From IMG/VR virus record IMGVR_UViG_3300046051_000062: a stretch of DNA of 64,000 bases. The stretch is one strand, 5' to 3'. This stretch comes from a virus. Positions 16,112-54,614 of this stretch are shown here, in pieces. How positions within the stretch are numbered: position 1 is the stretch's first letter; every line of letters begins with the position of its first letter. A program made the translations under genes and the position numbers. The notes beneath the pieces were generated by a model. The model was not told the DNA's origin and did no database searches. It saw only the letters and a list, made by a program, of their open reading frames with translations.

Positions 16112-16119
16112 CAGTACGC

Positions 16120-31210: not shown

Positions 31211-31696
31211 GTGTTCCAAGTGGATTGACGGTGGTGCGCGGACTGCCCGCGCGGCACCGTCGAGGGACCCGCCGGGAGTCGAACCCGGTCGGGTATGGTG
31301 GTGGTGTGCAATCGGCGTCGCCAGCGTTGCATACTCCCGCTCGCTGGGCGGGCGGGCTACGTGGCTCCCACCGTCAGCGTGCCGGGTGGTCCGGCACTCG
31401 GTGGGGTGGCTGGGGTTGGATGGGGGCGTGCTTTGGGTTGTGGCCCCGAGCAGGGGTGCCTTCCCCGGCCCTTCCCGGCGGAACACGCTCGCCGTGAAGG
31501 ACATCGTGGACGGGTGGTGGCGTGGTCGGGTGGGCGCTTCGGCCCGCAGTCGCCCCACACCCCACCGCTTTGTGGTCCGTTGCGTCGCGTTTCGGTGTAT
31601 TCCACCGCATTGCACCTAAACCTTCCGGTGCCGCTGCCCGGGTGCTGGGGACGAACCATCTGGCCCCTCTCGGGACAGAATGTGGGGGTTGTGCCC

Positions 31697-32119
31697 CTAC
31701 GTCTCTGCTTTTTCCACGTCGAGGTCCAGTTCCTCGGCGATGTCGCTGACGTTGGACTCGTGGGCCTCGCGCGACGACCGGGCGCCCCCGACGGACGCGC
31801 CGGTGTTGCGGTCCAGTTCCAGCGCGTCCATCAGCAGCCCGGACGCCTCGTTGCCGGTGATGATGGGTTGGAACGCGTGGACTGACGGGATGCCCCGGGC
31901 GTCGCGGGCGAGCGTCTGTTCCTCGGCGATGGCCTCCGCGAACACGAGGCTCGGATAGTCCTCCATCCCGTAGGCTTTCAGGAACGCCTCGGTCGCGTCC
32001 TCGCTGAACGGACCCAACACCTTGAACGCCTTCTCGGGGAAGTAGTAGCTGTCCCCGTCCATCTCGGTGAGTTCGGCGAACGCTTCTCCTTTCGTGAGTT
32101 CTTCATCTATATCGGTCAT
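31697..32119 (-). CDS. Array ORF, hypothetical
   Basis: Acidic ORF; repeat at 32129. Confidence 0.75.
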   Translation of the reverse strand: MTDIDEELTKGEAFAELTEMDGDSYYFPEKAFKVLGPFSEDATEAFLKAYGMEDYPSLVFAEAIAEEQTLARDARGIPSVHAFQPIITGNEASGLLMDALELDRNTGASVGGARSSREAHESNVSDIAEELDLDVEKAET

Positions 32120-32169
32120 CTCTGGTCAGCCCCTCTCGGGGCGATTTCGTGGTGGTGCGTGGTGGGTGG

Positions 32170-32559
32170 CTACTCGATGTCGATTTCGGTTTCGCTGCAT
32201 CGCTCCACTATTTCATCGGGGAGTTCGAGCGGTGGGAAGTTGTACTGCTCGACTGTCTCGGAGAGTTCCATGCGGCGCTCCTTGCTGCGGAATCCCATCT
32301 CCTCGATGGCGTCCTGGCTGTCGCCGCCGACGACCATCCCGGGGGCCTCGCGGTAGGTGTCGAGAAACAGCTTCGGGTTCTGGTAGACGAGGTGGATCTG
32401 GAGGGCGCTCACGCGCTCGGCCTCCTCGACTGCCCCCATCGTCAGCGACTTCTCCGCGCCGGCAGCGAGAGACGCCAGCGTGGAGACGAAGTTGCGTTCG
32501 TTGAGGTGGAGTTCGGTCGGTTCGTCGGGGTCGTCGTCGTCAAGTGCGTCGGGATTCAT
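32170..32559 (-). CDS. Array ORF, hypothetical
   Basis: Repeat at 32569. Confidence 0.75.
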   Translation of the reverse strand: MNPDALDDDDPDEPTELHLNERNFVSTLASLAAGAEKSLTMGAVEEAERVSALQIHLVYQNPKLFLDTYREAPGMVVGGDSQDAIEEMGFRSKERRMELSETVEQYNFPPLELPDEIVERCSETEIDIE

Positions 32560-32601
32560 GGGTAGGTATCCCCTCTCGGGGCGGGAGGGTGGTCGTCGGG
32601 G

Positions 32602-32949
32602 TTATGCGCCGTCTGCCGCCATCTCCGTCAGCAGCACGTCGATGTCGATGATGTCGCCGTCGCCGACGCCGTAGAGGCTGCGTTTGCGGGATGGGATGGT
32701 GATGCGTCCGCTGCGTTGCACGATGAGGTCCAGCGCCCAAAACTGGACGCCCTCGGCGGTGATGCGGAGGTCCACCACGTCATCCTCCTCGATGTCGTGG
32801 CGGTCCCGGAATCGCGCCGGGATGATGATGCGTCCGTTGTCGTGAACCCGCAGGTCGGGGACACCGAACGCCTCGTCGTCGGGGTCGCGGTTCTCGTCTG
32901 TCGTCTGTGACATGTCGTCGTTCACCTGGTCCGCGTTTGGGTCGGTCAT
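32602..32949 (-). CDS. Tandem AbrB/MazE-domain protein
   Basis: Two GRIxIP motifs (NGRIIIPARFR, SGRITIPSRKR); repeat at 32970. Confidence 0.85.
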   Translation of the reverse strand: MTDPNADQVNDDMSQTTDENRDPDDEAFGVPDLRVHDNGRIIIPARFRDRHDIEEDDVVDLRITAEGVQFWALDLIVQRSGRITIPSRKRSLYGVGDGDIIDIDVLLTEMAADGA

Positions 32950-33014
32950 GCCTTAGTAATGTTGGATGTGCCCCTCTCGGGACAAGAACGGGAGGCTGTG
33001 CCCCCCCGGCGTGA

Positions 33015-33497
33015 TCAGCGGTACTCCCGGTGTTCGGAATAGCGATGCTCGCCCTTTTTACTGTCGGCGACCTCGTGGGGGTCGGCCGCCGGGTCTGTGT
33101 TCAGCCCGGTGCGCACGTCCCGGAGGAACAGTGCGGCGTCCTTGAAGTCGTCGCCGTCCTTGCGTTCGACAGACATCCAGAGCGCGGCCATCTCCAGCAG
33201 GATGAGGTCGGCCACCTGCCCCTTCGCGGGGGACGGAGTGTAGTCCTCGTCCCGTTCCTCGGCCCCCTCGATGACCGTATCGACTCGGAGGACATCGTTC
33301 GTGAACCGCCCTGCCGTGTCGAACATGGCGGCCAGGTCGGAGTCGCCGTAGTGGCGGCGCAGATGGTCCGCAGCAACGACCGAGGCGACCCCGGCGGCCA
33401 TCAGCAGGTCACGGTGGTCGGGCGCGGAGAGGCGGATGTCACCCATCTCTGTGTCGGTGCTGGCGTCGTATCGAAACTCGCCGTGTGGTCGTTCCAT
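33015..33497 (-). CDS. Array ORF, hypothetical
   Basis: Repeat at 33507. Confidence 0.75.
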   Translation of the reverse strand: MERPHGEFRYDASTDTEMGDIRLSAPDHRDLLMAAGVASVVAADHLRRHYGDSDLAAMFDTAGRFTNDVLRVDTVIEGAEERDEDYTPSPAKGQVADLILLEMAALWMSVERKDGDDFKDAALFLRDVRTGLNTDPAADPHEVADSKKGEHRYSEHREYR

Positions 33498-33573
33498 GGT
33501 GGTTTCACCCCTCTCGGGGCGGTTGTGCGCGGGAGTCCACGCTGGGGCCCCACGGCGTTAGCCGTGGGTTAGC

Positions 33574-34200
33574 TTACGGTGCGTCATCGAGCAGGGCAGT
33601 TGCCCACCGGATGGGGTTGTCGTTCGCCGCGCGGTACGACGTGTCGGCGGTGTCCTCCAGGGTGGAGGTTTCGATGAGACGGGCCAGGACTGTCGCCGGA
33701 ACGGCGACCGCCCCGCCGTGGGCTACCGGCGAGTAGTTGAACTGGCGGTCGCCCACGTCGGTGACGGTGGGTGACACCTCGTCGTTGTCGCGGCGGTCGA
33801 GCAGGCGGGTTGCTGCGAACTCCGCCCACTTGCCGTCCTGGTGGGTCCATTCCTTCTCCCAACCGCCGTCGCCGTCGGCGTAGTGGCCGTAGTACCCTCT
33901 GTCGCGGAGGGTCCCCTTGACGAGAGCCCCGACCCGCCGGGGGCCGTAGCCCATCTCCGCGAGGCCGTCGAGGTCGCTCGGCGCGCACTCGACGCAGAAC
34001 AGCCGCTTGCGGGACCACCCGTGGTGGATACTCGAAACCGTCCAGACGAACCACGCCGTCACGGGGTCACCGTGGTCGAGGTCGGTGTCGCACTCTGCGC
34101 ACGAGCAGGCGTCCTCCGACAGCGCGAACCCGCCGGTACAGCGACCAAGCACTTCGGCGTCGGACTGGTTGCTCGCGTGGTCTGCTTCTGTTCGTATCAC
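33574..34200 (-). CDS. Array ORF with zinc-binding Cys motifs
   Basis: CSCAECD...FCVEC; GTG start 5 nt after the repeat at 34206. Confidence 0.7.
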   Translation of the reverse strand: MIRTEADHASNQSDAEVLGRCTGGFALSEDACSCAECDTDLDHGDPVTAWFVWTVSSIHHGWSRKRLFCVECAPSDLDGLAEMGYGPRRVGALVKGTLRDRGYYGHYADGDGGWEKEWTHQDGKWAEFAATRLLDRRDNDEVSPTVTDVGDRQFNYSPVAHGGAVAVPATVLARLIETSTLEDTADTSYRAANDNPIRWATALLDDAP

Positions 34201-34254
34201 GGTATGTCACGCCCCTCTCGGGGCAGGATGGGTGGCTGTCGGGGAGTGGAGGCG

Positions 34255-34365
34255 CTACGGCGCGGGGTAGCCGTAGTCCGGGTTCTCGGGGTCGGTGAAC
34301 TCCGCGACGAACCAGCCGGTGGGGTTCGCGCCGTTCTCGAACGCCTCCTCGGACACGGTAAACAC
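34255..34365 (-). CDS. Array micro-ORF (about 36 aa)
   Basis: VFTVSEEAFENGANPTGWFVAEFTDPENPDYGYPAP; acidic, follows the repeat at 34367; start uncertain. Confidence 0.45.
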   Translation of the reverse strand: MFTVSEEAFENGANPTGWFVAEFTDPENPDYGYPAP

Positions 34366-34474
34366 CACCCCTCTCGGGGCGGGCGGGAAAATTGAGAGGG
34401 GCGTGACCCATCGGTTGTGTGCCTGTGCGACTGATGCCCCTTTCGGGGCCGAGCAAGGGTATCGCGGGCCGCGG

Positions 34475-34672
34475 TCACCGGTAGACCGCGAAGTGGTCGG
34501 CGGCCGCTATCTTCTTCGCCAATTCCGACTTCTCTCTCACGATGTCCCCGATGCCGCCGGGGACCGAGAACTGCACGTCCTCGCCATGGATGACATGGAC
34601 CGTAAGGACCCTGCCGTCGATGACGAGGGTGTCGCCCTGGTGGAGCCGGACGGGGAGGATTTCGTCACTCAT
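34475..34672 (-). CDS. Small beta-rich protein
   Basis: Overlaps the stop of the TOPRIM gene. Confidence 0.6.
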   Translation of the reverse strand: MSDEILPVRLHQGDTLVIDGRVLTVHVIHGEDVQFSVPGGIGDIVREKSELAKKIAAADHFAVYR

Positions 34673-35963
34673 CGTTCAGCCCCATCAGGTTCATCACGTC
34701 GATGTCTTCGCTCTCGATGGCGTCGTACATCTCCTGTTTCAGTCGGTCGCGCTGGCTGGCGAACGAGGGTGACACCACGTCGGTGTTGCCCTCGTCGTCG
34801 GTCGGCGCGTCTACGGCGCACTCGACGTACTCCTCGGCGTCCAGCGGCCTCGGGAGCAGCCGGTGGTCGGACCCCCTGACTGTGTCGAGGTCGATGGTTG
34901 CGCGGGTGCCGTCGTCGGTCGGGTAACACCGCGTGACGCCATCGGCCTCCTCCATCTGGTCGCAGGCGAACTCCAGCAGCCGGGATTGGAGTTCGTCGGT
35001 CAGTTCGTCCACGAGGTGTTCGACTGACCAGTATGCGGTCGAGGCGACGGCGGTTGCCTCGTCGGTGGTGATGCGTTCGCGGAATCGCAGATGCTCGCGC
35101 ATCGCTCCCACGACAATCTCACGCAGCGGGGCACCGCCCTCGCCGACGCCACCGATGGCCTCGATCTCCAGTCCGTAGCGGTCCTCGATGCCGTACTCGC
35201 GCAGCCACCGCTCGTCGTAGTCGTCCTCGACGGGCACCTGGAACCGTTCCTGTTCCCGAACGTGGTCGGACACCTGGTCGGGTTCGATGCCGATGCGGTC
35301 GACCTGGGTGATGTTGACGCCGAGTTGCTTGCTCCGCCGCTCGAAGTCTTCGGCTATCTCGTAGCCGGTCGGGTCGTAGTCGGACAGGACGAACAGTTGG
35401 TAGGACTGGTCGGGGTCGAGGTGGTGGGCCATGTCCTCGATGAGCGCCGTGGCCTCCCACCCGCCGCCGCTGACGAGGGACACCTCGAACACGCGCTGTA
35501 TCGGGAGGAGACGCCGGTAGGCGGCCTCCTTCTCTACGAACAATATCTTGTCGTCCTCGATGCTGCCGTGGGCGATCTCCCGCTGTCGGGAGTCGTCCAC
35601 GATGTTGAGCGCCCTGTAGGTGACCTCGCCGTCCGTGACCATATCGGAGAGGTACTCCGAGAGGTACTGCGAGTACCGGCGGTTGGCGTCGAACTCCGGG
35701 TCGTCCCACTTCTCGGGGAAGGCGTGCTGTAACGCGGTCTTCACGCCGGAGTACCAGAGGCCGCGCAGGGACATGCTGTCCTCGCGGCCTTGCCACGCCA
35801 GTTCGCGGTCGAGGATGCGCACGAGGTCTTTGATGATCCGCTTCGGCGAGAGGTTCCCCCGGTAGAGCCAGTCGTCCACCTGGCGGAACTCCGCTGCGGA
35901 CAGCGCCAGCGTCTCGTCCATCGACTGTGGCTTCCGTATCGTCTGTCGTTCGTCTCCTGTCAT
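34665..35963 (-). CDS. Topo VI-A/Spo11-like TOPRIM domain protein
   Basis: LRGLWYSG (5Y-CAP-like), ILFVEKEA, LSDYDPTGYEI, LEIEAI; start at the ATG after the repeat at 35977. Confidence 0.75.
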   Translation of the reverse strand: MTGDERQTIRKPQSMDETLALSAAEFRQVDDWLYRGNLSPKRIIKDLVRILDRELAWQGREDSMSLRGLWYSGVKTALQHAFPEKWDDPEFDANRRYSQYLSEYLSDMVTDGEVTYRALNIVDDSRQREIAHGSIEDDKILFVEKEAAYRRLLPIQRVFEVSLVSGGGWEATALIEDMAHHLDPDQSYQLFVLSDYDPTGYEIAEDFERRSKQLGVNITQVDRIGIEPDQVSDHVREQERFQVPVEDDYDERWLREYGIEDRYGLEIEAIGGVGEGGAPLREIVVGAMREHLRFRERITTDEATAVASTAYWSVEHLVDELTDELQSRLLEFACDQMEEADGVTRCYPTDDGTRATIDLDTVRGSDHRLLPRPLDAEEYVECAVDAPTDDEGNTDVVSPSFASQRDRLKQEMYDAIESEDIDVMNLMGLNDE

Positions 35964-36103
35964 AGTTGGTTGTCGCCCCCTCTCGGGGTGGTAGTCCCGG
36001 CGGGACTTGAACCTGCGGTCGCTGGCTTTTCTCCCGCGCAGGGGCGGGGGTGGGTGCCTGCTTGGTCCGCTGGTGCTTGAAGGTCGCACGCCGGGGGGTC
36101 CGG

Positions 36104-36346
36104 CTACTTCTTGTCGACCATCTCTACTAACTCCTCCATCGAGTCTTGCTGTGACTCGACTATTTCCTGTAGCTCGCGGATGTTCTCGGACTGCCGTTCG
36201 GCCGTATCCAATCCGTCATCCAGCGCCTCTTTTGCCGCGATGATGTCCCGGATGTAGTAGAAGTGGGCGCTCGTTGCTCCTGCGAGGCCGCCAACGATAG
36301 CGGCTGCAATGATGAACAACAGCGCCGTGCTGGTGGCGATAGGCAT
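36104..36346 (-). CDS. Membrane-anchored coiled-coil small protein
   Basis: N-terminal TM helix plus heptads. Confidence 0.7.
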   Translation of the reverse strand: MPIATSTALLFIIAAAIVGGLAGATSAHFYYIRDIIAAKEALDDGLDTAERQSENIRELQEIVESQQDSMEELVEMVDKK

Positions 36347-36349
36347 GGA

Positions 36350-37153
36350 TTACACCCCCGTGGACGTTGATGAGTACCAGTCGGCGTACCGGATGCCGTC
36401 GAAACCAGGTGGTCGCCTCCGCTCCGTGGACGAGGAGTCGGGGTCGATACCCAACTGTCGTAGGTCTTCGACGGTGGTGTTCTCCTCGACGCCTTTCACC
36501 TCCTGTTCGGTGAGGGTCATGTCGAAGTGGGCCTTGAGTAGCGGCGGCAGGAAAATCCCGTTGTACGGGTCGTTCGCGCACTCGATGCGGGCGAACTGTC
36601 GGAGGATGTGGCGGTTCTCCTCGGCGAACAGTTTGTCGAGGTACTGGTCGTCCTCCTCGGTGATCCCGACGGCTTCGGGGGCGTACTCGGGGTAGATGAG
36701 GGTGTTCGTTAGAGCGATGGCTGTCTCTGCGACTTCGAGCAGGTCGAGCAGGAACGGGTAGTCGGTCATGGTGCTGTCCTCCAGTGTGAGCATCCCCGCG
36801 AGGGCGTCGTCGGCGAACTGGAGTGTGGGGCCGACGTTCTCGTAGTCCTTGCGTTTGATTTGGTCGAGTGAGAAGTTGGTGCAGGACCAGCCGAACTTCG
36901 AGAGCGCCTTCATCGCCGGGCGGTTCGGCTCGGCTGCGCCATCCAGGTCTGTCTTGGCGAACACGCACTCGCGGGCCGTGCGGTCGGTGACGTTGAAGTC
37001 GTACCGCTGCTGTGGTTCGCCCACGTAGTCACAGACGAGGTTGACGGACACCCGGTCGGTGCCGCCATGTCCGTAGGACCAGTAAATTACGGTCGCGTCC
37101 CACTCGGTGCCTCGGTCGTTGATGGTGTGTTCCTCGGTGGTTTCTTTCTCCAT
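36350..37153 (-). CDS. Array ORF, hypothetical
   Basis: Repeat with GAAA loop at 37160. Confidence 0.75.
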   Translation of the reverse strand: MEKETTEEHTINDRGTEWDATVIYWSYGHGGTDRVSVNLVCDYVGEPQQRYDFNVTDRTARECVFAKTDLDGAAEPNRPAMKALSKFGWSCTNFSLDQIKRKDYENVGPTLQFADDALAGMLTLEDSTMTDYPFLLDLLEVAETAIALTNTLIYPEYAPEAVGITEEDDQYLDKLFAEENRHILRQFARIECANDPYNGIFLPPLLKAHFDMTLTEQEVKGVEENTTVEDLRQLGIDPDSSSTERRRPPGFDGIRYADWYSSTSTGV

Positions 37154-37215
37154 CGGTCATCACGCCCCTTTCGGGGCCGCATGGCGGGCGACACCTGTCC
37201 CACCTGTTTGTGGTT

Positions 37216-37551
37216 CTATTCGTCTGTCTTGAAGTGGATTGCCTTCACCCATGTCGATTCGTCAAACGGAACGTCGTAGTACGTCGCCAGCGTGTCGGCC
37301 AGCGCAGCCGGGTCGCTGTATGGGTAGTTCCAGTCGAACACGTCCACGGCCTTTGCGGCCGTCTCGACGGGACCGATGACGATGATATGAACATCGGCTT
37401 CGGCGAACACGTCGCCGTCGGGCGTCGTACAGACCAGCGTGTCGCCGGTCTGGATGTCCTTGTCATCGCCGTAGCGGACGGTGGTGTCCTTGGTCCCCTC
37501 AAGAATGGGGTCACGGAACTGCTCGGCGAACTTGAGTTGCTTGCGTGCCAT
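37216..37551 (-). CDS. ASCH domain protein
   Basis: LKFAEQFRDPILEGTKDTTVR...GDTLV; repeat at 37560. Confidence 0.8.
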   Translation of the reverse strand: MARKQLKFAEQFRDPILEGTKDTTVRYGDDKDIQTGDTLVCTTPDGDVFAEADVHIIVIGPVETAAKAVDVFDWNYPYSDPAALADTLATYYDVPFDESTWVKAIHFKTDE

Positions 37552-37770
37552 ATCGGTTTGCCCCTCTCGGGGCCGAAGCGTGCTGGATAGTGGGAGGAGG
37601 GGCCAGCGGTCAACGACGAACAACAGCGCGGTCACGAACGAGTGCGCAACCACGTAGGCGGCGAACCACACGAGGCCGAATAGGTCTGCGAGGTGGCCCG
37701 CGAGCAGCGCCACGGAGATAGCGACGCCGAGGACCATGAATCCGGTGACGACCTTGTGGTTCCAGTTCAT
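37552..37770 (-). CDS. Two-TM membrane ORF, open in frame into the ASCH gene
   Basis: MNWNHKVVTGFMVLGVAISVALLAG...; repeat at 37782; no stop before the ASCH ATG. Confidence 0.55.
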
Positions 37771-40391: not shown

Positions 40392-40427
40392 GATGTCACG
40401 CCCCTCTCGGGGCTAAAACGCCTCTGC

Positions 40428-42423: not shown

Positions 42424-42887
42424 TGCTCCCCCGGGTCCGGGATGTCGTCCGTCTGGGCAGGGAATTTGGGACCAGCCGGCAGGTCCTCGACCCGCCGGTT
42501 CTGGACGACGAGTTCGACCTCGCCATCGTGGTGGATTACGTGGTCGAACGACAGCATCTCGGTCCCGAGCCGGCGGGCGCCCTCGGTGTGGTGGGGCCAG
42601 CAGACCTCGACGGTGGCGAAGTCGCGGTACCACTCGCCGTCGTCGTGGTCGTTGATGGTCCCGTGGTGTGGGCGTCCGAAGTGGACGCCCTCTTTGGCTT
42701 CGAAGAACGCCTGGCCGTTGCCCAGGGACGTGTGTCCCGGGTGGACCTCGCCGTCGATGATGGCTCCCCCGATGAGGAGGCCACACTCCCGGCAATGGCC
42801 GCCGTGGTCGCCGCCGCCCGGCACCGGGTCGTCGCACGGGCAGAGGATTGGACACGAGCCGTCGTTACAGTTGGTGGTTTCAGTCAC
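42420..42887 (-). CDS. Array ORF, Cys/His-rich hypothetical
   Basis: GTG start; GAGTA-loop repeat at 42893. Confidence 0.7.
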   Translation of the reverse strand: MTETTNCNDGSCPILCPCDDPVPGGGDHGGHCRECGLLIGGAIIDGEVHPGHTSLGNGQAFFEAKEGVHFGRPHHGTINDHDDGEWYRDFATVEVCWPHHTEGARRLGTEMLSFDHVIHHDGEVELVVQNRRVEDLPAGPKFPAQTDDIPDPGEQ

Positions 42888-42936
42888 GGTTGGTCACGCC
42901 CCTACTCGGGGCAGGATGGCTCCGGGTGGCGGGTGG

Positions 42937-43707: not shown

Positions 43708-43838
43708 GGATGGTAGCCCCGCTCGGGGCGTGAAGTGAGGGGCGTGACCCTGGGTGCCCTCTCGTCCGGTTGGTCTATCAGATGGTTCGGCATTGGCCCT
43801 CTCGGGCCTGGGTCCGGCGGCTGGCTCACCCGGCGGGG

Positions 43839-44597
43839 TCAGTCCTCGTCGGGGATGCGCCCGTCGTGGGACACCGCCACGTTGTTGTAGCCGCGCCGCT
43901 TGGTGAGCCGCCGCTGGATGTTCTCGATGGCACTGCTGGCCTTGTCGTCCGGGAGGTCGCGGATGTCCACCACGTAGCGGTGGCCGAGCGGGAACTCCAC
44001 CCGGGCGACTTTGCCCAGGTGGACCTCGTTGCTCGCCCACGTTTTCGCGGTGATGTCCCGCTCGTCGCGGACCATCGCCTCGATGCGGCGGTCGTCGTCG
44101 GCCACGTCCTGGCCGCGGATGCGCCAGGGGTTGTTGGTGTTCTCCTCGACGCGCTCGACCTCGATGGTCACCGAGCAGAGGTTCTCCGAGCGGTCGGACC
44201 AGTAGAACACCTCGGCCTCGACATCCTCTTGGACCGCGCCCGTGACGGGTGGGCGCTGTGGGAACTGGACGCGCTCTATCCGGTGGATTTCCTCACCGGC
44301 GGCGAGCGTCTGCGGGCTGTCGCCTTCGAGGCTGACCAGTCGCCGCTCCTCGGGGTTGTACGCGAGGTGCTGGCCGTCGTTCCAGAACCCGTAGAACCCC
44401 TCGGGGACGCTGTTGTACTTGGCCGGGCCGGTGGCTGCGCGCGACCGCACGGTCTTCTGTCGGTAGCCCGAGCGGGGCCGGTAGGTGATGTCGACCGTGT
44501 GGTGCCGAAGCGTCACCTCGGATACGTCCTCGGGGTCGACCGTCTCCGTTTTCTCCCGGTATCGCTGGTCGGCGTACTTTTTGCCTTCTTTCAGCAT
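43839..44597 (-). CDS. Array ORF, hypothetical
   Basis: Repeat at 44604. Confidence 0.75.
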   Translation of the reverse strand: MLKEGKKYADQRYREKTETVDPEDVSEVTLRHHTVDITYRPRSGYRQKTVRSRAATGPAKYNSVPEGFYGFWNDGQHLAYNPEERRLVSLEGDSPQTLAAGEEIHRIERVQFPQRPPVTGAVQEDVEAEVFYWSDRSENLCSVTIEVERVEENTNNPWRIRGQDVADDDRRIEAMVRDERDITAKTWASNEVHLGKVARVEFPLGHRYVVDIRDLPDDKASSAIENIQRRLTKRRGYNNVAVSHDGRIPDED

Positions 44598-44640
44598 GGT
44601 GTGGTCACGCCCCTCTCGGGGCCGAAGCCGGTGGTGGAAC

Positions 44641-44970: not shown

Positions 44971-45016
44971 GGTGGTCACGCCCCTACTCGGGGCAGGACC
45001 GCCCGATTGCGGGCGG

Positions 45017-45628
45017 TTAGTCGTCGTCTGTCATGGCGGGCGATGCGTCGTACCCCTCAGCGTGGGCTGTGACCGCGGGCGGGCGGCCGACGTAGCCGGT
45101 CGGTTCGAACCGCCACCAGCCGGTGATCTCCTTGCCCCTTGAATCCGTCTCCTGTCGAATCCGGTCGTCGCTCTCGAACACCTCGCTCTCCTGGTTGTTG
45201 ATTCGTTCACCGACCGTATCGCGGCGCTCCTGTAGGTCTGCGACCCATTCCGCGAGGTCGTCGTTCTTGAGCCACTGCGCGCCCGTGGAGTGAACCCAGC
45301 CGTTCTCGAAGACGAGCCAGGACAGGTCCTCGGGGTAGGCTCCCTCCGCGAGCCGGAGGCCGCCGTCGCTCTCGATCTGCCAGCCGTGAGCGCCGGAAGT
45401 CGCAACCGCGTAGTGCATCTCCCAGCCCTCCTCGATGGCCCGGTGAAACCGGCCGGTGTCCTGCTCGACCGCTCCATCGCGGTGGCCGAAGGCATCCGCG
45501 AGCCGCTGGTCGAGGCGACCCCGGAGCTTGCTCGCCTTCGCGTGGTCCATCGACGTGTCGAGGCGCTGCTTGCGCTCAGTTCGGTTGTCACCCGTGCCGG
45601 CGTCAGTGCCGGTGTTGTCGTTAGTCAC
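45017..45628 (-). CDS. Array ORF, hypothetical
   Basis: GTG start; repeat at 45634. Confidence 0.75.
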   Translation of the reverse strand: MTNDNTGTDAGTGDNRTERKQRLDTSMDHAKASKLRGRLDQRLADAFGHRDGAVEQDTGRFHRAIEEGWEMHYAVATSGAHGWQIESDGGLRLAEGAYPEDLSWLVFENGWVHSTGAQWLKNDDLAEWVADLQERRDTVGERINNQESEVFESDDRIRQETDSRGKEITGWWRFEPTGYVGRPPAVTAHAEGYDASPAMTDDD

Positions 45629-45697
45629 GGTTGGTCACGCCCCTACTCGGGGCAGGGCCGCCCACTCGACGGCGGGCGGTAGTTGCGGACTCCCTGG

Positions 45698-48139: not shown

Positions 48140-48349
48140 TCAGTCGCTCTTGGCGAGCGTCCCCGGGGCCACCTTGGCGGGGTTGATGTCCCGCTCGATT
48201 AGTTCGTCCTCCAGCAGGTTCAGGGCGCAGGCGGCACGCCACCCGCCGTCGCCGTGGAAGTGAACGTCCGCGTACAGCGTGCGGAAGCGCCGTTTCAGTG
48301 CCGTGTCGTTCCACTCTTCAGCGGGGTTCCAGTCGTGCATCCGTTGCAT
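48140..48349 (-). CDS. Array ORF, small helical protein
   Basis: Repeat at 48356. Confidence 0.65.
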   Translation of the reverse strand: MQRMHDWNPAEEWNDTALKRRFRTLYADVHFHGDGGWRAACALNLLEDELIERDINPAKVAPGTLAKSD

Positions 48350-48450
48350 GGGTGGGTCACGCCCCCTTCGGGGCTGTGAAGGGGTGAAGCCCTTGGCGGG
48401 TGATCCCCACCGTGGGCCACCCCTCTGTCGGAGCCGGGGGTGCGACTCCG

Positions 48451-48831: not shown

Positions 48832-48870
48832 CGGGGTCACGTCCCTCTCGGGACTGGACGGGGGGAGTAC

Positions 48871-49311: not shown

Positions 49312-49363
49312 GGGTGGTCACGCCCCTCTCGGGGCCGAAGGCGGGCGCCCGCCCGCCGGTTGG

Positions 49364-49750
49364 TTAGTAGTCGAACAGTTCGTCGCCGGGTGCATCATCC
49401 TCGTAGAAGGCGACGGCGGTCATGTAGCCGTGGGCGAAGTCCCGGGCACGGGTCCGGTCCCCGGCGGGCGGGGCCATGGCCGTGGGGGTATCCCCCGCCA
49501 GCGGGCGGACGAACCCCATCAGGTCAATCGTGCCGTGTTCGGGGTACGCCAGGACGAACCACGTGCCGTCGCCGGTTCGCCCGAGTAGCACCTGGTGGCC
49601 GTTGGCGAACAGGTACGCCTCCTCGCCGCCGGCGTCTCGCTGGTCGGGGTCGAACCGAGTCCAGCCCGGCGGGAGCCGCTCGTCGGGCATACCCTGGGCC
49701 TCCTCGTTGTCGATGCCGTCGCGCAGGTCGGGTCCATCGTACTCTGTCAT
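49364..49750 (-). CDS. Array ORF, hypothetical
   Basis: Repeat at 49757. Confidence 0.7.
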   Translation of the reverse strand: MTEYDGPDLRDGIDNEEAQGMPDERLPPGWTRFDPDQRDAGGEEAYLFANGHQVLLGRTGDGTWFVLAYPEHGTIDLMGFVRPLAGDTPTAMAPPAGDRTRARDFAHGYMTAVAFYEDDAPGDELFDY

Positions 49751-49789
49751 TGTCGGGTCACACCCCTCTCGGGGCCGGACGGGGGGTGG

Positions 49790-49951
49790 CTACCCCGCTA
49801 TCTCGCGGACGGGGCGGCAGAACGCCCCCACGTCCACACCGCCGCTTTTGGCGCAGTCCCGGCAGGCGATTAGGTCGCCGTCCGGGTGCCACACGTCGGT
49901 GGCGGGGTCGGTCGGTTCAAGCGCATCGTCGCAAATGTCACAACGGTACAT
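49790..49951 (-). CDS. Array micro-ORF, zinc finger (53 aa)
   Basis: MYRCDICDD...IACRDC; repeat at 49957; not in the ORF track. Confidence 0.65.
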   Translation of the reverse strand: MYRCDICDDALEPTDPATDVWHPDGDLIACRDCAKSGGVDVGAFCRPVREIAG

Positions 49952-50060
49952 AGTGGGTCACACCCCTCTCGGGGCCGACGGGTAGGCGGCTGGAGCGTGT
50001 GACAACTCGCCGCCTGTCGGGTAGGGGGTGGGCCTCTCGGCCCCGAAAGTGGGCGGGTGG

Positions 50061-50438
50061 CTATTCGTGGCGGCCCGGGTCGGCGTCCAGGTCGGCGAGC
50101 GCGTCGTAGGCGCCGCGTTCCCAGGCCCGCAGGAGCGAGCCGAACACCCGGGTGGCTTCGGTCAGCCGGGCCGCCGCCGGCTCGTCCTCCTCACAGCCGG
50201 GCTTGATGGCCGCCACCTGGCGGTTCTCGTTGTACGTCCCGTGGCCCCGGTCGGCGTGGCCGGCCATGGCCCGCAGGTCCGGGAGGACGTGGTTCGCGTA
50301 CCGCGCGGACTCCCGCAAGCCGTCGATGTCCGGCTCGGCCTCGTCGGGCAGGTCGGTGTCCGAGAACTCCTCGTAGCCCTTGCGGTACGCCTCCTCTCGC
50401 CGGTAGTACGGTTTCACGACCGCTATTTCGTCGGTCAT
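50061..50438 (-). CDS. Array ORF, hypothetical
   Basis: Repeat at 50444. Confidence 0.7.
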   Translation of the reverse strand: MTDEIAVVKPYYRREEAYRKGYEEFSDTDLPDEAEPDIDGLRESARYANHVLPDLRAMAGHADRGHGTYNENRQVAAIKPGCEEDEPAAARLTEATRVFGSLLRAWERGAYDALADLDADPGRHE

Positions 50439-50485
50439 AGTGGGTCACGCCCCTACTCGGGGCAGGACCGCCCGAATCCGGGCGG

Positions 50486-51034
50486 TTAGTCGTCGTCGTC
50501 CAGGCCGGCCACTACGTCCTCGCGGGGTATCCAGGAGGTGTCCCCGGCGTCGCCGTAGGGACGGAACTCCTCGGCCAGCATGATACGAACCTCCGTGCCG
50601 TCCTCGGCCAGCAGGAACGCTTCGGCGAACACGCCCATGCCGTCGGGGTCACGCACCTCGACCACCGGGTCGGGGTGGGCACCACCGTCGTCGTAGATGA
50701 GGACGTTGGTCTGGAGTCGCCGGAGGCAGGACCCACAGGACGCGCCTGGGTAATCGAACTCGTCGGTGCAGGCGACGACCCCCACGCCGAACCCGTTGCT
50801 GTCGTGGTGTCCGGCGGGCAGCGATTCGACGGTGTACTGCTCGCCGTCGTCGGCGCTCACGACTTCGATGTCGCCCGCGCACTCGGGGCAGTACGCCTCG
50901 CCGTCGTAGACGTAGCCCGCGAGTCCGCCGGGGACGTACCCCCCGCTCTCGCCGGGCGTCCGGCGGGCGGCCGGGGCCAGGTCGCCGGGGTCGTCGGTCA
51001 CGTCGTCGGCTGTTAGGACTGCGATTACGGTCAT
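50486..51034 (-). CDS. Array ORF with Cys motifs
   Basis: YCPEC...CGSC; repeat at 51041. Confidence 0.75.
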   Translation of the reverse strand: MTVIAVLTADDVTDDPGDLAPAARRTPGESGGYVPGGLAGYVYDGEAYCPECAGDIEVVSADDGEQYTVESLPAGHHDSNGFGVGVVACTDEFDYPGASCGSCLRRLQTNVLIYDDGGAHPDPVVEVRDPDGMGVFAEAFLLAEDGTEVRIMLAEEFRPYGDAGDTSWIPREDVVAGLDDDD

Positions 51035-51077
51035 GGTCGGGTCACGCCCCTCTCGGGGCTATAACGGAGTGGGGTCG

Positions 51078-51482
51078 TTAGCGGGTGGACGCCACCACTT
51101 CGACGTGGGCGTTGTCTTCCAGCACCGACAGGACAGCCGGGGGAACGTCCCCGAGGGTCGCGTCGACCCGCTGGGTCGGCGGGGCGCGGCGGTACTCCGC
51201 GTATGGAGCGTGCCGGTCGGTCTTGAGCGGCGTGTAGACGTGGGCCTTGGGGACCAGGGACACCTCTCTCGGCCGGTCGTCGCCGAGTTCGGCGTCGGAG
51301 TCGAACAGCCACTTGTCCGTCGCTGCGTCGTCGCTGTGCCGCTTGACGACGACTGTCGTCGGCGCCGGGCCGTTCATCCACACCTGCCGGTGCACACCCG
51401 AGGTTCGGTAGGCTTCGGGTCGGTCGGCCGGGACTGGAACGCCATCTTCTACGGTTGTGTCGGGATAGTAACTGACTCTCAC
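51078..51482 (-). CDS. Array ORF, hypothetical
   Basis: GTG start; repeat at 51490. Confidence 0.7.
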   Translation of the reverse strand: MRVSYYPDTTVEDGVPVPADRPEAYRTSGVHRQVWMNGPAPTTVVVKRHSDDAATDKWLFDSDAELGDDRPREVSLVPKAHVYTPLKTDRHAPYAEYRRAPPTQRVDATLGDVPPAVLSVLEDNAHVEVVASTR

Positions 51483-51539
51483 GGTAATCTCACGCCCCTC
51501 TCAGGGCAAAATGGTGCTGGGTGGTGGGGGTGGTTGGGG

Positions 51540-51956
51540 CTACGCCGAAAGCTCCATATCGCCGACGGGACTGTCGGGGAGTGACGCCTCGCGCGTCGTC
51601 GCCGCCCCGTTCACCTCCTCTACGATCTTCACCACGAACCGGGGGTAGTACTCGACCGCCCGCCGGAGCAGGGTGCCCTCCGCCTTCTCGGCGGGGACCT
51701 GTCCCCCCCGGGTGTTGGGGTGGGTCTTGCTGACGTAGAGGGTCCCGCTGGGGTGGACGGTGTAGTAACAGGGCGCTCCCGGTTTTGAGGCCTTGACCGT
51801 CATCGGGCCGACCCCTGACCCCCCGGCGCTCCGGGGCCTCGTCACGCTGGTCAGACGCTCGGCCTCGTCCCTGTCCCGAAGCCAGTCGCGGAGTGCTTCG
51901 TCGGATTGTTCGAGTCGTTCGACCGCTGTCTCAAGTTCCTCGATTGCCTCGGCCAT
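51540..51956 (-). CDS. Array ORF, hypothetical
   Basis: Repeat at 51961. Confidence 0.7.
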   Translation of the reverse strand: MAEAIEELETAVERLEQSDEALRDWLRDRDEAERLTSVTRPRSAGGSGVGPMTVKASKPGAPCYYTVHPSGTLYVSKTHPNTRGGQVPAEKAEGTLLRRAVEYYPRFVVKIVEEVNGAATTREASLPDSPVGDMELSA

Positions 51957-52005
51957 GGTATCACGCCCCTCTCGGGGCCGAACCACCCGACAGCGTGCTG
52001 GGTGG

Positions 52006-52470
52006 TTAGCAGTGTTCGTCGGGGTCGATGCCGTGGCTGTCGAGTATCTCCGGGTACGGGTCGCCCGTCCGGTAGCCCGACTGGCCGTGGTAGTGCGTCA
52101 GGTCGGCGACGTAGTAGGCCGCCCGCTCGAAGAACCGGGGGCTGTCCGGCTCCGGCGACGCGCCGGCGAGCCCCCCGCTTTCGTGGAGCGACCGGAGAAT
52201 TCGTTGCATGCCCTCGGTGAACCCGTTGGCGGGGTCGCCGCCTTCGAACACGTCGTCCGGGTAGAACTGGTAGGTGGTGACGTGCTGGCGGTCGTCGTCG
52301 GCGTCCGCGCTGGCGGTAATCCTCGCCCACGGGACTGTCACAACGACCTCCCAGCACCCCAGGTCCGGGTCCCACCGGACGAACTTGCCGCCGTGTGGTT
52401 CCGGGTTCGCGTCGCCATAGTTCTCCCACTCCCGGGAGAACTCCTCGGTTGGGATTGCGCCGTCGGTCAT
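52006..52470 (-). CDS. Array ORF, hypothetical
   Basis: Repeat at 52477. Confidence 0.75.
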   Translation of the reverse strand: MTDGAIPTEEFSREWENYGDANPEPHGGKFVRWDPDLGCWEVVVTVPWARITASADADDDRQHVTTYQFYPDDVFEGGDPANGFTEGMQRILRSLHESGGLAGASPEPDSPRFFERAAYYVADLTHYHGQSGYRTGDPYPEILDSHGIDPDEHC

Positions 52471-52515
52471 GGTTGGGTCACGCCCCTACTCGGGGCACCA
52501 AAAGAGGGTAGGGTC

Positions 52516-52833
52516 TTACCCGACGACGGGGCCGTAGCCCTCGCGGGCGCGGTCGAGTCCGTACACGCCGTGATGTAGCGGCGTCTCCTCGACCGGAACG
52601 TACTCCGAATCACCCCACACCTCGCCGAACTCCATGCCGTGCGGGAACTCGTCGGAGGGGTACAGGTTGTACGCCCCCTCAACGTGGCTGGCGACCAGCC
52701 ACCGTCCCGTTTGGCCGTCGTGGTAGATGTACGCGGGGTTGCGGTCGTACCCCCACTCGTAGGCGAGGCCGTCGTCGGAATTTCCACGGACTTTGCGGTG
52801 GATTTCTTGAAGCCTTTCGTCACTCGTTGGCAT
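52516..52833 (-). CDS. Array ORF, hypothetical
   Basis: Repeat at 52838. Confidence 0.7.
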   Translation of the reverse strand: MPTSDERLQEIHRKVRGNSDDGLAYEWGYDRNPAYIYHDGQTGRWLVASHVEGAYNLYPSDEFPHGMEFGEVWGDSEYVPVEETPLHHGVYGLDRAREGYGPVVG

Positions 52834-52879
52834 GGTGGTCACGCCCCTACTCGGGGCTAAAAGTCGGGGAGGGGCCGGG

Positions 52880-53272
52880 TTAGACGGTAATGGTCATGCC
52901 GTCCGTGAAGTCCCGGCGGCCCTCCGGCGTCTCGACGTACCACTCAAAGTCCCGCTGGATCACCGTGTAGCCCGGCGGGGTGTGGCGGTTGATGCGCTGT
53001 TTCGTCGTCCTGGTTCGGTGGCCGCACGAATCCAGGCGGTACGTGTCGCCGTCCCGGACCACCACCGGGCTGTGGTGGTAGTAGTAGACGGTCACGCCGT
53101 CCACTTCAACGATCACGTCCCGGTAGGCGCCCCGGTCGGTGTCGTTGGAGCACCCACAGCGGGGGTGGCCTCGCGGGCCACTCCCGGGCTGGTGGTAGGC
53201 GTCCTGGTTGGTCACGGTACCGCGGTCGCACGCGTCCCAGTAGTCCGGGACGGGTAGGCTCTTGGCCGTCAT
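52880..53272 (-). CDS. Array ORF, phage-type hypothetical
   Basis: TRTTKQRINR...QRDFEWYV...FTDGM pattern; repeat at 53279. Confidence 0.7.
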   Translation of the reverse strand: MTAKSLPVPDYWDACDRGTVTNQDAYHQPGSGPRGHPRCGCSNDTDRGAYRDVIVEVDGVTVYYYHHSPVVVRDGDTYRLDSCGHRTRTTKQRINRHTPPGYTVIQRDFEWYVETPEGRRDFTDGMTITV

Positions 53273-53326
53273 TGTCGAGTCACACCCCTCTCGGGGCCGG
53301 TGGGGGCGGGGAGTGCCCCCGCGCCG

Positions 53327-53494
53327 TTAGCGGGTTATCATCAGCCGGTCGTCCGCACACTCGCCGCAAGCAGCGCGCGGGGCGAGTCCGGCGTAGACAG
53401 TCTCAACCGCTTCGACTTGCCGGTGCCCGCAACCCATGCACTCGAACGTGTACTCGGTCAATTCCGGCGGGCCTCGCTTTGGTGGTTGGGTCAT
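53327..53494 (-). CDS. Array micro-ORF, zinc ribbon (55 aa)
   Basis: FECMGCG...ACGEC; repeat at 53519 plus an extra GGGGGG/CCCCCC hairpin before the ATG. Confidence 0.65.
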   Translation of the reverse strand: MTQPPKRGPPELTEYTFECMGCGHRQVEAVETVYAGLAPRAACGECADDRLMITR

Positions 53495-53566
53495 TATCTC
53501 GGGGGGGTCAACCCCCCGGTCACGCCCTTCTCGGGGCTCTAACGGGGTGGAGGCGGGGACCGCCCG

Positions 53567-53872
53567 TCAGTCGCTCCCCGCGAGACGGGGGGCCATGGCG
53601 GCCAGTCCCGCGACGGCGACGTGCAGGGCGTCGGTGTCTCCATCCATCACTGTTTGCTCGTACACCCGGTCACCGTCGCCGTCGGGGTGATCGAGGAACC
53701 GTACCAGCCGAACGGTCGTACCGCTCCGGTCGGCCCGGTGTATCACCTGAATGTGGACCCGGTGGCGCTCGCACCGCCACGTCCGGGTTCCGTGTCCGTC
53801 GTTCAACGCCCACCCGTCCGGTAGTCGGTCGGCCGGGGTCGGGGCGGGGAGATTCGTGGGTACTGATGTCAT
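53567..53872 (-). CDS. Array ORF, hypothetical
   Basis: Repeat at 53879. Confidence 0.7.
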   Translation of the reverse strand: MTSVPTNLPAPTPADRLPDGWALNDGHGTRTWRCERHRVHIQVIHRADRSGTTVRLVRFLDHPDGDGDRVYEQTVMDGDTDALHVAVAGLAAMAPRLAGSD

Positions 53873-53923
53873 GGTCGGGTCACGCCCCTCTCGGGGCAGG
53901 TGGTTCAGCCCCCCACCGGACGC

Positions 53924-54061
53924 TTACACGTCGGCGGGGTCGTCGGGCGAGTAGTCGGTCCCGGCGTGGGACAGTTGGTCGTCCACGGTCCACCGCGGGT
54001 CCGTGTCGTCGCGGTCGTCCAGCGGTTCGCCTGGGGTCTTGAGTAGGTCGTCCCCTTGCAT
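53924..54061 (-). CDS. Array micro-ORF (45 aa, very acidic)
   Basis: MQGDDLLKTPGEPLDDRDDTDPRW...; repeat at 54067. Confidence 0.6.
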   Translation of the reverse strand: MQGDDLLKTPGEPLDDRDDTDPRWTVDDQLSHAGTDYSPDDPADV

Positions 54062-54100
54062 TGTGAGTCACGCCCCTCTCGGGGCAAAAACGGAGGGTGT

Positions 54101-54421
54101 CTACCCGGGGCGCTGCGCCACGTCTCCGGGTTTGCGCGGGTCCGCGAGTTCTTCGGCCGGGCAGTCAGCGACCACCAGGCCGATTTTCTTCGGCTCGGAG
54201 TGGACCAGCGAGTTGCTCACCGGGTACCAGCCGAGGCGCCGAATCAGGGCGAACACTCCCATGTCCGCCCGCCCGTCCCGAAGGTCGAAGGACAGGATGG
54301 TGGCGTCGCGGTCACGGTTCGGTTCCTGTTCGTCCGGCCCCACGACGACGAAGGACGAATCCACGCCGTCGAGTTCGAGGAGCCGGTCTTGCAGTCGCTC
54401 ATGGTCGGTTATCTCGTCCAT
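54101..54421 (-). CDS. First clear array ORF, hypothetical
   Basis: Repeat at 54429. Confidence 0.7.
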   Translation of the reverse strand: MDEITDHERLQDRLLELDGVDSSFVVVGPDEQEPNRDRDATILSFDLRDGRADMGVFALIRRLGWYPVSNSLVHSEPKKIGLVVADCPAEELADPRKPGDVAQRPG

Positions 54422-54614
54422 GTTGGGACACGCCCCTACTCGGGGCGAAGGGTCGTAGGCGTAAGTGGTGTGCCTACTGCGGTTGGTGGCCGGGGCTTCT
54501 CAGCCCTCCGGCCGGGGGATACCAGCCCCCAGCGTTTCCAGCCCTTGCTCCACCGTCGTTCGGTCGGTAGTATCCACGGTGCTGTATCTCTCTCGCACGG
54601 CCCCTTGCGGGGCC

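Follow-up and report, generated by a model that had tools for sequence, protein, structure and literature searches.

The SAS repeats of Cluster K mycobacteriophages are linear 13-bp motifs with the consensus GGGATAGGAGCCC. They occur in 11–19 copies per bacterial phage genome, form no hairpin, and are placed in a single orientation 3–7 bp before the predicted starts of many genes; the authors saw no evidence of RNA pairing in the inverted repeats that accompany them (PMC3203893). The T4-type PeSLs and the HGTV-1 motif are composites of a promoter, with TATA or sigma-70 boxes, and a stem-loop (PMC3950731, PMC2839356, PMC4122927). The intergenic repeats of HF2, seven of class I (58 bp) and two of class II (29 bp), are AT-rich and have been shown by experiment to be promoters (PMC8707807). 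In H. volcanii the extended Shine–Dalgarno (SD) motif is GGAGGUGA; distal operon genes carry SD motifs 3–7 nt from the start codon and usually overlap the preceding gene, with a distance below 4 nt in 91% of them, and SD pairing is dispensable in 5′ UTRs (PMC3986360).

The hairpin array and its relatives

The window, by which we mean the whole stretch of 64,000 nucleotides analyzed here, is part of a haloarchaeal-type contig, about 90 kb long, of a halite metagenome. Among public runs the stretch occurs in four DNA runs of one halite study and in no RNA run. Almost every small gene of a 23-kb array in this window is preceded, about 10 bases 5′ of its start codon, by a hairpin and a GUGA box. 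The consensus is a 5-bp stem (GCCCC/GGGGC) that is closed by a GAGA loop and followed by a GTGAC tail, and the element covers roughly 90% of the array genes. A scan with the 14-nt core at up to two mismatches returned 43 matches, against 2.6 expected, on a single strand only; curation brought the number to 51, all on the same strand. Every feature listed in a previous sequence-only reading of this DNA was recovered in place. The features discussed below are the following:

31663–54613, minus strand: array of 51 hairpin copies, one for almost every small ORF (motif scan and curation)
44604–44622, minus strand: canonical copy with GCCCC/GGGGC stem and GAGA loop (44609–44622) and GTGAC tail (44604–44608); the hairpin is part of the MFE fold
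54600–54613, minus strand: head copy with GCAA loop and CGTGC tail; weakest model match (13.9 bits)
48841–48854, minus strand: compensatory variant GUCCC/GGGAC with U-A at pair 2 (stem comparison)
43795–43808, minus strand: compensatory variant GGCCC/GGGCC with a G-C swap at pair 2, found in addition to those read earlier
49762–49775, minus strand: copy with G.U wobble at the outer pair, GCCCC/GGGGU (homologous-gene series)
53524–53537, minus strand: rare imperfect copy with C.A at the loop-closing pair; start codon 29 nt off
42898–42912, minus strand: first of seven copies of the five-base-loop subfamily GAGTA (loop inventory)
37560–37573, minus strand: copy inside a 184-codon open frame, 37216–37770 (ORF and domain match)
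40400–40418, minus strand: copy with a TATA-like T-tract, TTTTA (40414–40418), abutting the 5′ side of the stem about 27 nt before ATG
44998–45017, minus strand: example of a variable second hairpin after the upstream stop codon (folding against shuffles)
34394–34407, minus strand: sense-strand anti-repeat, complementary to the element in its loop, 3′ arm, and tail
56502–57422, plus strand: tyrosine recombinase, divergently oriented to the array, with non-coding DNA between the two (homology to relatives)

A greedy longest-ORF caller was unsuitable at the GC content of the array because it picks antisense ORFs. We used motif-anchored calls checked by GC3, which is 0.8–0.9 for ORFs behind window copies, together with the gene calls of the public records. 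Mechanical ORF lists often contain a spuriously extended ORF that begins at the GTG of the GTGAC tail.

The ATG at 44595–44597 behind the canonical copy opens a 252-codon ORF (43839–44597), and the 111-codon version of the frame around 37560 that starts behind the copy contains the entire ASCH domain match. The head copy has no ORF start within 12 nt, and the copy at 43795 has neither a GTGA tail nor an ORF behind it. Over all arrays, 130 of 149 stems end at a distance of 8–12 nt from the start codon that follows, and for GTGA the distance is 4–8 nt in 107 of 110 cases. This SD-like spacing supports the previously proposed link to translation starts. Many array genes had also been thought to start with GTG, which turned out to be the minority codon (17, versus 128 ATG and 4 TTG). 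A C two bases before the start codon is conserved in 88%. Given exactly one copy per junction and the fixed distance to the start codon, we rejected a selfish REP- or MITE-like repeat.

Arrays of the same layout, in the order divergent tyrosine integrase, 1–2 kb of non-coding DNA, and co-oriented small ORFs, occur in four other metagenome sources. The divergent integrase recurs in the window and in two related arrays, L136 and L138; that of the window is 56% identical in amino acid sequence to that of L136, and the integrases of the relatives match PF00589. Proteins encoded by different arrays are 30–79% identical and the gene order is shuffled, while the element is near-invariant. Across four arrays gene order and content differ at the grain of single genes, with protein identities of 30–79% that prevent exact mapping of DNA breakpoints. 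Two further arrays (L010 and L013) combine the same repeat with unrelated genes. Many apparent joints with sides of 20–24 nt, which could be read as deletions, are repeats of relatives landing on arbitrary copies and were discarded as evidence of rearrangement. Pfam searches with 30 array proteins returned a weak match to Kyano_Gp96, the ASCH match, and nothing else, and an AlphaFold model of the most conserved family (128 aa, pLDDT 77) has no fold match in the PDB. The related arrays contain a faint match to a MazE-like antitoxin and a Halo_toxin gene.

Copies picked over all arrays by inner stem and loop alone number 160, of which 160 are on the gene strand and none on the opposite strand. 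A covariance model gave 169 matches, nearly all on the gene strand. This model found no match in the cultured haloviruses HCTV-1 and HGTV-1 (105 kb), nor did the curated Rfam models at gathering score find one in the whole window. Megablast and tblastn searches of phage and plasmid collections returned no match. In IMG/VR the exact 19-mer was absent, a degenerate pattern gave single chance matches only, and a protein-based locus search found nothing; in GTDB species genomes the exact 19-mer gave four single chance matches, all bacterial. A literature search with the motif letters returned only unrelated papers.

Covariation of the stem in the mRNA sense

GAGA is the loop of 144 of the 160 copies across all arrays, and of most copies in the window. 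The exceptions read previously were confirmed: GAAA at 34436 and 37164, GCAA at 54600, GAAG at 48361, GAGC at 43716, and GAGTA in seven copies (42898, 44980, 45639, 50449, 52482, 52843, and 54432). The first four GAGTA copies have about 26 identical flank bases in common, and the source assembly is broken exactly at these copies. The sequence-only reading had argued from GNRA loops, an argument that is weak because the loop is almost invariant and because GAGTA, GAAG, and GAGC are not GNRA; we discarded it as strong evidence.

The compensatory stems at 48841 and 39941 (CCCCG/CGGGG) were confirmed, as were the wobble copies: G.U at the outer pair at 33507, 49762, 49962, and 53284, to which we add 34367, U.G at pair 2 at 31663 and 32970, and U.G at pair 5 at 51494. 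Imperfect copies other than 53524 are those at 32569, 35975, and 48100 (one extra A in the 3′ arm). Where homologous genes are compared, the junctions in front of them form series of G-C, G.U, and A-U pairs and also contain double swaps, in flanks that are not conserved. The copy at 49762, for example, has G.U in the window, G-C in L136 and in another related array, L141, and A-U in L138, and the U.G intermediate of the 48841 variant occurs at the L141 junction before a homologous gene.

In the 160 copies the outer two pairs contain 26 G.U wobbles, 26 double compensatory changes, and one A.C or C.A mismatch. This mismatch is of the type that would wobble on the opposite strand, and it is outnumbered 26 to 1 by wobbles of the sense strand. 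The counts are GC 120, GU 15, AU 6, CG 4, UA 2, UG 1, and A.C 1 for the outer pair and CG 136, UG 10, UA 8, GC 5, and C.A 0 for the second pair (binomial p = 8e-7). Changes from G to A are almost always compensated and those from C to U often stand alone (Fisher p = 1.6e-4); the copies are non-independent events, and the p-values are therefore optimistic. Paired cells amount to 99.1%, more than in 500 of 500 shuffles, and 48–74% in slid controls. Cells with double changes number 14, versus 1.5 in shuffles, a value reached by none of the 500. The sense strand has A > T and C > G, so that a general C-to-T bias is not the explanation of the wobble asymmetry. This pattern of variation shows that selection acts on the hairpin in its folded form and on the strand of mRNA sense. 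The earlier interpretation thus stands in two respects: mRNA-sense selection is borne out by the wobble asymmetry, the Fisher test, and shuffle-tested pairing with its double changes, and the link to starts by the position of the GUGA box. Its argument from GNRA loops is weak, and that from GTG starts is not borne out.

Translation starts and competing readings

We surmise, with a probability of about 0.55, that the element is a start-associated mRNA hairpin combined with an SD-like module. It would form a three-part cis-acting mRNA module consisting of a 5-bp G/C stem, a capping GAGA tetraloop, and a single-stranded GUGA(C) directly 3′ of the stem, and may supply each cistron of a long transcript with its own ribosome start site. 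The gaps of about 45–55 nt between array genes are too long for the overlap-based re-initiation that is normal in haloarchaeal operons. The hairpin would display the GUGA box and hide the G-rich SD half in part; possibly it also protects or punctuates the RNA. GUGA is the 3′ half (4 of 8 nt) of GGAGGUGA, a motif taken from H. volcanii. The 3′ arm and tail (GGGG-C-GUGA) match seven of the eight positions if the last C of the stem is bulged, so that the rest of the match requires an opened stem and one bulged C. Non-array genes in the same window have TATA boxes or GGAGGT in place of the element. Against this reading, SD pairing is dispensable in H. volcanii 5′ UTRs (PMC3986360) and four free nucleotides make a weak SD. 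As a side effect, related elements could exchange single genes by recombination within the homology that the 19–30-nt repeats provide. What the sequences show directly is the hairpin with its strand and covariation, its distance from the start codon, and its persistence in diverged arrays; from these we infer ribosome binding, polycistronic transcription, and recombination at the repeats.

The same evidence for a hairpin in the RNA sense would equally fit RNA punctuation only, that is, a processing or stability signal such as a site for a hairpin-specific endonuclease or a cap that protects the 5′ or 3′ end of processed monocistronic RNAs, with no direct recruitment of ribosomes. The GAGA loop is conserved far beyond the needs of stability, and in roughly a third of the junctions the stop codon is immediately followed by a second hairpin, as at 44998, which a U-rich linker connects to the first. 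Junction spacers have lower MFEs than shuffles (Wilcoxon p = 4e-6; z < −2 in 27%). Such a pair of hairpins with a U-rich linker is similar to the sites at which the T7 early transcript is processed between genes. Processing of long halovirus transcripts is also known (discussion in PMC8707807). However, a stability element needs neither the tight SD-like distance to the start codon nor a GUGA box, and a ruler-type cut exactly at the AUG would not be expected to leave a spacing with a variation of about 2 nt. Pfam searches with 30 array proteins and one fold search yielded no candidate for a nuclease or a hairpin-binding protein. We consider this explanation unlikely.

The near-invariant GAGA loop and the C conserved at 88% are unexplained by SD pairing and hint at a specific protein or RNA partner. 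C-GAGA-G has the same loop and closing pair as the sarcin–ricin loop of large-subunit rRNA. The hairpin might then be an SD-independent archaeal signal for internal ribosome entry or re-initiation, with C-GAGA-G read by a translation factor or a protein of the element, although we hold this to be a distinctly improbable version. The conserved anti-repeat on the sense strand (34394–34407) would serve as a built-in switch at one junction. It is flanked by a tail-less GAAA hairpin (34436–34449) and a regular copy (34367–34380), and the three-part module recurs in L136 (about 18393) and L138 (about 16104); a second, degenerate anti-repeat lies at 43735–43748. If true, a single RNA with such entry signals could serve for the translation of about 50 widely spaced cistrons.

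Readings at the DNA level (operator, promoter, or attC-like site) are weaker than the mRNA reading. A regulator operator of the stoperator type, or a compact promoter between a TATA-like T-tract and a leaderless start, draws on the enrichment of T at positions −5 to −2 relative to the stem (about −29 to −25 when counted from the ATG). About one in seven window copies has a TATA-like T-tract at leaderless-promoter distance. Tracts like that at 40400 precede the copies at 51046, 51494, 52482, 52843, and 54072, and tracts of at least four T abut the 5′ side of the stem in only 6 of the 51 copies (TTATA at 51046). Seven of the 11 runs of at least four T on the sense strand of the array are in junctions, six of them abutting a copy and one in the loop of a second hairpin. 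The TTTTAG box and its distance match those of the non-array leaderless-type gene at 20056. In T-tract copies the hairpin would sit upstream of the RNA from such a promoter, which argues against the mRNA reading there. Halovirus precedents are the intergenic promoter repeats of HF2 (PMC8707807) and the motif of HGTV-1 (PMC3950731), which we saw directly in the HGTV-1 sequence. A single orientation and short intergenic sites are also hallmarks of mycobacteriophage stoperators, as contrasted with SAS (PMC3203893). Yet a reader of double-stranded DNA, including a stoperator regulator, selects neither for complementarity nor for strand-specific wobbles; we find 26 double changes and 26 wobbles versus a single mismatch (A.C 1, C.A 0). 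The compensatory changes occur inside one array, where a regulator would be common to all copies. Furthermore, a TTWT box is absent from most copies, the DNA upstream is rich in C and poor in A, in contrast to a CGAAA BRE (both motifs from PMC4983044), and a promoter before every one of about 50 genes would be unusual. Such a control site appears quite improbable to us.

Least probable of all, to the point of being very unlikely, is that the hairpin folds in single-stranded DNA as a crossover site of the neighboring tyrosine recombinase in an integron-like cassette platform. The layout shared by the window, L136, and L138, in which a divergent integrase and a non-coding leader adjoin co-oriented ORFan genes, speaks for it, as do the gene-by-gene differences between arrays, the repeat kept with unrelated genes in L010 and L013, and the putative antitoxin and toxin genes. 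Toxin–antitoxin genes occur in chromosomal integrons. Folded DNA tolerates G.T pairs; that these can form in single-stranded DNA also weighs against the mRNA reading. The attC sites of integrons measure 57–141 nt, contain R''-L''/L'-R' boxes and extrahelical bases, and lie 3′ of the cassette ORF. A 14-nt hairpin with 5-bp arms and no R or L boxes is far below the size of attC or tyrosine-recombinase core sites, its tail has no mirror on the 5′ side, and the fixed start distance and SD-like box have no role in recombination. Homologous recombination between 19–30-nt repeats, as proposed for PeSLs, explains the shuffling equally well (PMC4122927).

Comparison with known repeat systems

As a putative start-associated mRNA hairpin, the element speaks to the open question of how haloarchaeal ribosomes start on internal cistrons that have neither overlap nor a full SD. 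As a candidate signal it combines compactness with high conservation and strong covariation, and it would be portable as a 30-nt cassette. The arrays define a hitherto undescribed family of integrative elements, haloarchaeal and uncultured, whose ORFan arrays are hypervariable and integron-like, and the covariance model provides a simple tag for finding more of them in metagenomes.

The likeness to integrons consists of a divergent tyrosine recombinase, a long co-oriented array of mostly ORFan genes, a conserved folded repeat, and variable content. The adjacent divergent PF00589 integrase, as identified in the relatives, is a candidate counterpart of IntI. In contrast to attC, the repeat is a 14-nt hairpin without mirrored boxes, 8–12 nt before the next start. 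The HF2 repeats are likewise conserved intergenic repeats of a haloarchaeal mobile element tied to gene expression, but they do not precede every gene and have no covarying hairpin. PeSLs and the HGTV-1 motif resemble the element as inverted-repeat motifs before most small ORFs of one hypervariable arm, with a proposed role in gene shuffling. Those repeats are AT-rich composites of 70–125 nt (68–125 nt for the HGTV-1 motif as seen here) with clear TATA or promoter boxes, whereas the present one is GC-rich, measures 19 nt, and abuts the start codon; it has the stem-loop, with a TATA-like tract in a minority of copies and a C-rich upstream region.

Like SAS, the element is a short asymmetric repeat in one orientation a few bases before the starts of many non-structural genes, with GTGA 4–8 nt away in 107 of 110 cases and 160 copies on one strand. 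Instead of the linear consensus GGGATAGGAGCCC, it has a covarying GAGA hairpin in about 50 copies in an archaeal setting, which makes it an analogue of SAS and not a member. In each of them a partial SD motif is joined by conserved bases that SD pairing does not account for, both precede unrelated gene families with overuse of ATG, and the functions of both are putative.

Distribution of the element in the window and in related arrays

The element upstream of the small same-strand genes of the array is a hairpin with a 5-bp stem (consensus GCCCC/GGGGC), a four-base GAGA loop and a GTGAC tail. Curated coordinates and alignment place 51 copies in the window, all in a single orientation (31663-54613, minus strand). 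Allowing up to 2 mismatches, its 14-nt core matches 43 times, always on one strand, where shuffles predict 2.6 matches. The loop and stem variants listed in the sequence-only reading are all present in the curated alignment where it had placed them. Contig ends and overlaps in the source assembly coincide exactly with four copies of a GAGTA-loop subfamily, which have about 26 identical bases in common.

GAGTA-loop copies at assembly breaks (window coordinates, minus strand)
42886-42911
44977-45003
45627-45652
50446-50472

Since these repeats lie at contig ends, how the intervening blocks are ordered in the window depends on how the assembler resolved the repeats.

The window comes from a halite-metagenome contig of ~90 kb. 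Beyond the array it codes for a PrimPol-type replicase, a ParA-like protein, an SMC-like ATPase and a subtilase, and a tyrosine recombinase gene diverges from the array head. Because the large ORFs scanned in the window include no capsid or terminase gene, we take it to be a plasmid-like or integrative element of an uncultured haloarchaeon. Searches of the phage, plasmid, IMG/VR and GTDB collections found no close relative. Pfam searches with 30 array proteins returned a weak Kyano_Gp96 match and an ASCH match, but otherwise no family. Element copy 37560 lies in frame within a 184-codon ORF (37216-37770, minus strand), the ASCH domain of which is wholly contained in the 111-codon part behind this copy. 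This reflects either the loss of a stop codon or the production of two forms of the protein.

Scanning JGI metagenomes for the exact motif recovered two short contigs with five (L010) and four (L013) copies, and their genes are unrelated to those of the window. One array protein, used as the query of a homology search, retrieved three long relatives (L136, L138 and L141), in which the element precedes almost all gene starts called by public pipelines. L136 and L138 begin like the window array, with a divergent integrase, 1-2 kb of non-coding DNA and then many co-oriented small ORFs. Homologous proteins share only 30-79% identity between arrays, many genes occur in one array alone, and gene order is shuffled. 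The element is far more conserved between arrays than the genes downstream of it, and recent copying is no explanation; the element is thus under selection.

Two further features of these arrays were observed. A Halo_toxin (PF26442) gene together with faint MazE-like antitoxin matches (L141 4159-4473, L136 20194-20387, L138 19597-19920) suggests toxin-antitoxin cassettes. The leaders of the window array and L136 are unalignable except for a 49-nt patch of 86% identity (window 55566-55613, L136 3797-3845). This patch is non-coding and GC-rich, contains nested inverted repeats, lies ~1 kb upstream of the array head, and may serve as an att site, as an origin or in promoter control.

Covariation and strand asymmetry of the stem

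We trained a covariance model on the copies of the window. Across the six sources it scored 169 matches, nearly all of them on the strand of the genes; 105 kb of sequence from the cultured haloviruses HCTV-1 and HGTV-1 yielded no match. Among the 150 best matches, 99.1% of the stem cells are paired. Two-sided changes occur in 14 cells compared with 1.5 in shuffles, none of 500 shuffles scored as high, and pairing falls to 48-74% when the 3' partner is slid. Since this alignment was fitted to the model, we repeated the count on copies with an exact inner CCC, loop and GGG, ignoring the two outer pairs in ascertainment. The gene strand has 160 such copies and the opposite strand has none; 144 of them carry the almost invariant GAGA loop.

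Pair counts in the set defined by inner stem and loop
Outer pair: GC 120, GU 15, AU 6, CG 4, UA 2, UG 1, A.C 1, other mismatches 11
Second pair: CG 136, UG 10, UA 8, GC 5, UC 1, C.A 0

From these counts, one-sided transitions that leave a wobble in the mRNA sense exceed those that leave one on the other strand by 26 : 1 (binomial p = 8e-7), and G-to-A changes are nearly always accompanied by C-to-U in the partner whereas C-to-U often occurs alone (Fisher p = 1.6e-4); both p-values are optimistic because the copies are mutually related, and the direction is the same in all four long arrays. A general drift from C to T does not explain the asymmetry, since the sense strand has more A than T and more C than G. 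At homologous genes, one junction family holds G-C in L136 and L141, G.U in the window and A-U in L138; another holds U.G and U-A, and others show double transversions. The spacers flanking the element are unconserved in all families compared. The proposal of the sequence-only reading that the hairpin is selected in the mRNA sense is therefore well supported by the wobble ratio, the compensated G-to-A changes and the covariation.

Position of the element relative to stop and start codons

Behind about 40 of the window copies, an ATG or GTG follows 8-12 nt beyond the 3' end of the stem and begins an ORF whose GC fraction at third codon positions is 0.8-0.9. Across all arrays, 130 of 149 starts follow the end of the stem by 8-12 nt (mode 10), and GTGA lies 4-8 nt ahead of the start codon in 107 of 110 cases; the start codons are ATG (128), GTG (17) and TTG (4). 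With a median of 22 nt from the upstream stop codon to the stem, the intergenic junctions measure ~45-55 nt. About one-third of them contain a second, variable hairpin directly after the stop codon, and in the remaining two-thirds the spacer is C-rich and without structure. Hairpins that overlap a stop codon or lie directly 3' of one form a second recurring family in L136, L138, L141 and the window (for example L136 6884-6904 and L141 ~1000), whose members are shared from array to array and between different genes. In some, TGA precedes a stem of the CCGCCG/CGGTC type; in others, TAG precedes one of the GCGGG/CCCGC type.

The extended Shine-Dalgarno (SD) motif of haloarchaea is GGAGGUGA; in distal operon genes of H. 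volcanii SD motifs stand 3-7 nt ahead of the start, and in 91% of these genes the gap to the preceding gene is below 4 nt (Kramer et al., PMC3986360). GUGA is the 3' half of this motif, and in our own alignment the 3' arm and tail of the element agree with it at 7 of 8 positions, provided that a single C is bulged. Outside the array, genes of the window are instead preceded by GGAGGT at the SD spacing or by a TATA box around -27. Since the array genes are spaced beyond overlap-type re-initiation, we infer that the element would provide the start site of each cistron. A role in translation initiation is our preferred reading, with a probability of roughly 55%. SD pairing accounts neither for the near-invariant GAGA loop nor for a C at -2 from the start codon, found in 88% of element-preceded genes against 34% in the background. 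The C at -2 is anchored to the start codon and not to the hairpin, and the context (A/C)(A/C)C-N-AUG bears a faint Kozak likeness.

That the element is a processing signal only seems unlikely, and we give slightly less credence still to a DNA operator or promoter. Haloarchaeal leaderless promoters contain a TTWT box (PMC4983044), and T-tracts (TTTTA, TTATA, TTTTT) ~27-30 nt before the ATG at copies such as 40400, 51046, 52843 and 54072 reproduce this geometry, as does the non-array gene 20056. Immediately 5' of the stem T is over-represented, reaching 55% at -4 against a background of 14%, and 7 of the 11 runs of at least 4 T on the array sense strand fall in junctions, six abutting an element copy and one in the loop of a junction's second hairpin. 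With T-tracts at leaderless-promoter distance, some junctions may double as promoters internal to the array or as U-tract terminators. A TTWT-type box is missing from most copies, and the DNA upstream is C-rich and A-poor, unlike a BRE.

A three-part module is kept in three arrays.

Locations of the module
window 34367-34449, minus strand
L136 ~18330-18460
L138 ~16040-16160

It consists of a tail-less GAAA-loop hairpin, a ~28-nt spacer and a sense-strand anti-repeat complementary to the element's loop, 3' arm and tail, followed by a regular copy and a gene start. In the centroid fold of L136 the anti-repeat pairs with the next element copy, which would sequester the start region of the next gene.

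Comparison with known systems

The resemblance to integrons is real in layout, with a divergent tyrosine recombinase, an ORFan array and variable content, but the array repeat falls outside the attC definition; that the element is a recombination site is quite improbable. No Rfam family matched, and searches for the motif letters in full-text literature found nothing relevant. Among haloarchaeal elements, HF2 has intergenic repeats that are AT-rich promoters (PMC8707807). The HGTV-1 motif, which precedes most ORFs of one arm and has been likened to the PeSLs of T4, combines TATA boxes with a 9-bp inverted repeat in an AT-rich unit of 68-125 nt (PMC3950731), as we also saw directly in the sequence.

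In behaviour, the start-associated sequences found in Cluster K mycobacteriophages come nearest; they share placement, orientation and a partial SD with the element but are linear 13-mers without RNA-pairing support (PMC3203893). The initial observation of the hairpin is confirmed and much strengthened. The hairpin is new, covaries, is associated with gene starts and has been conserved throughout a family of uncultured haloarchaeal elements.
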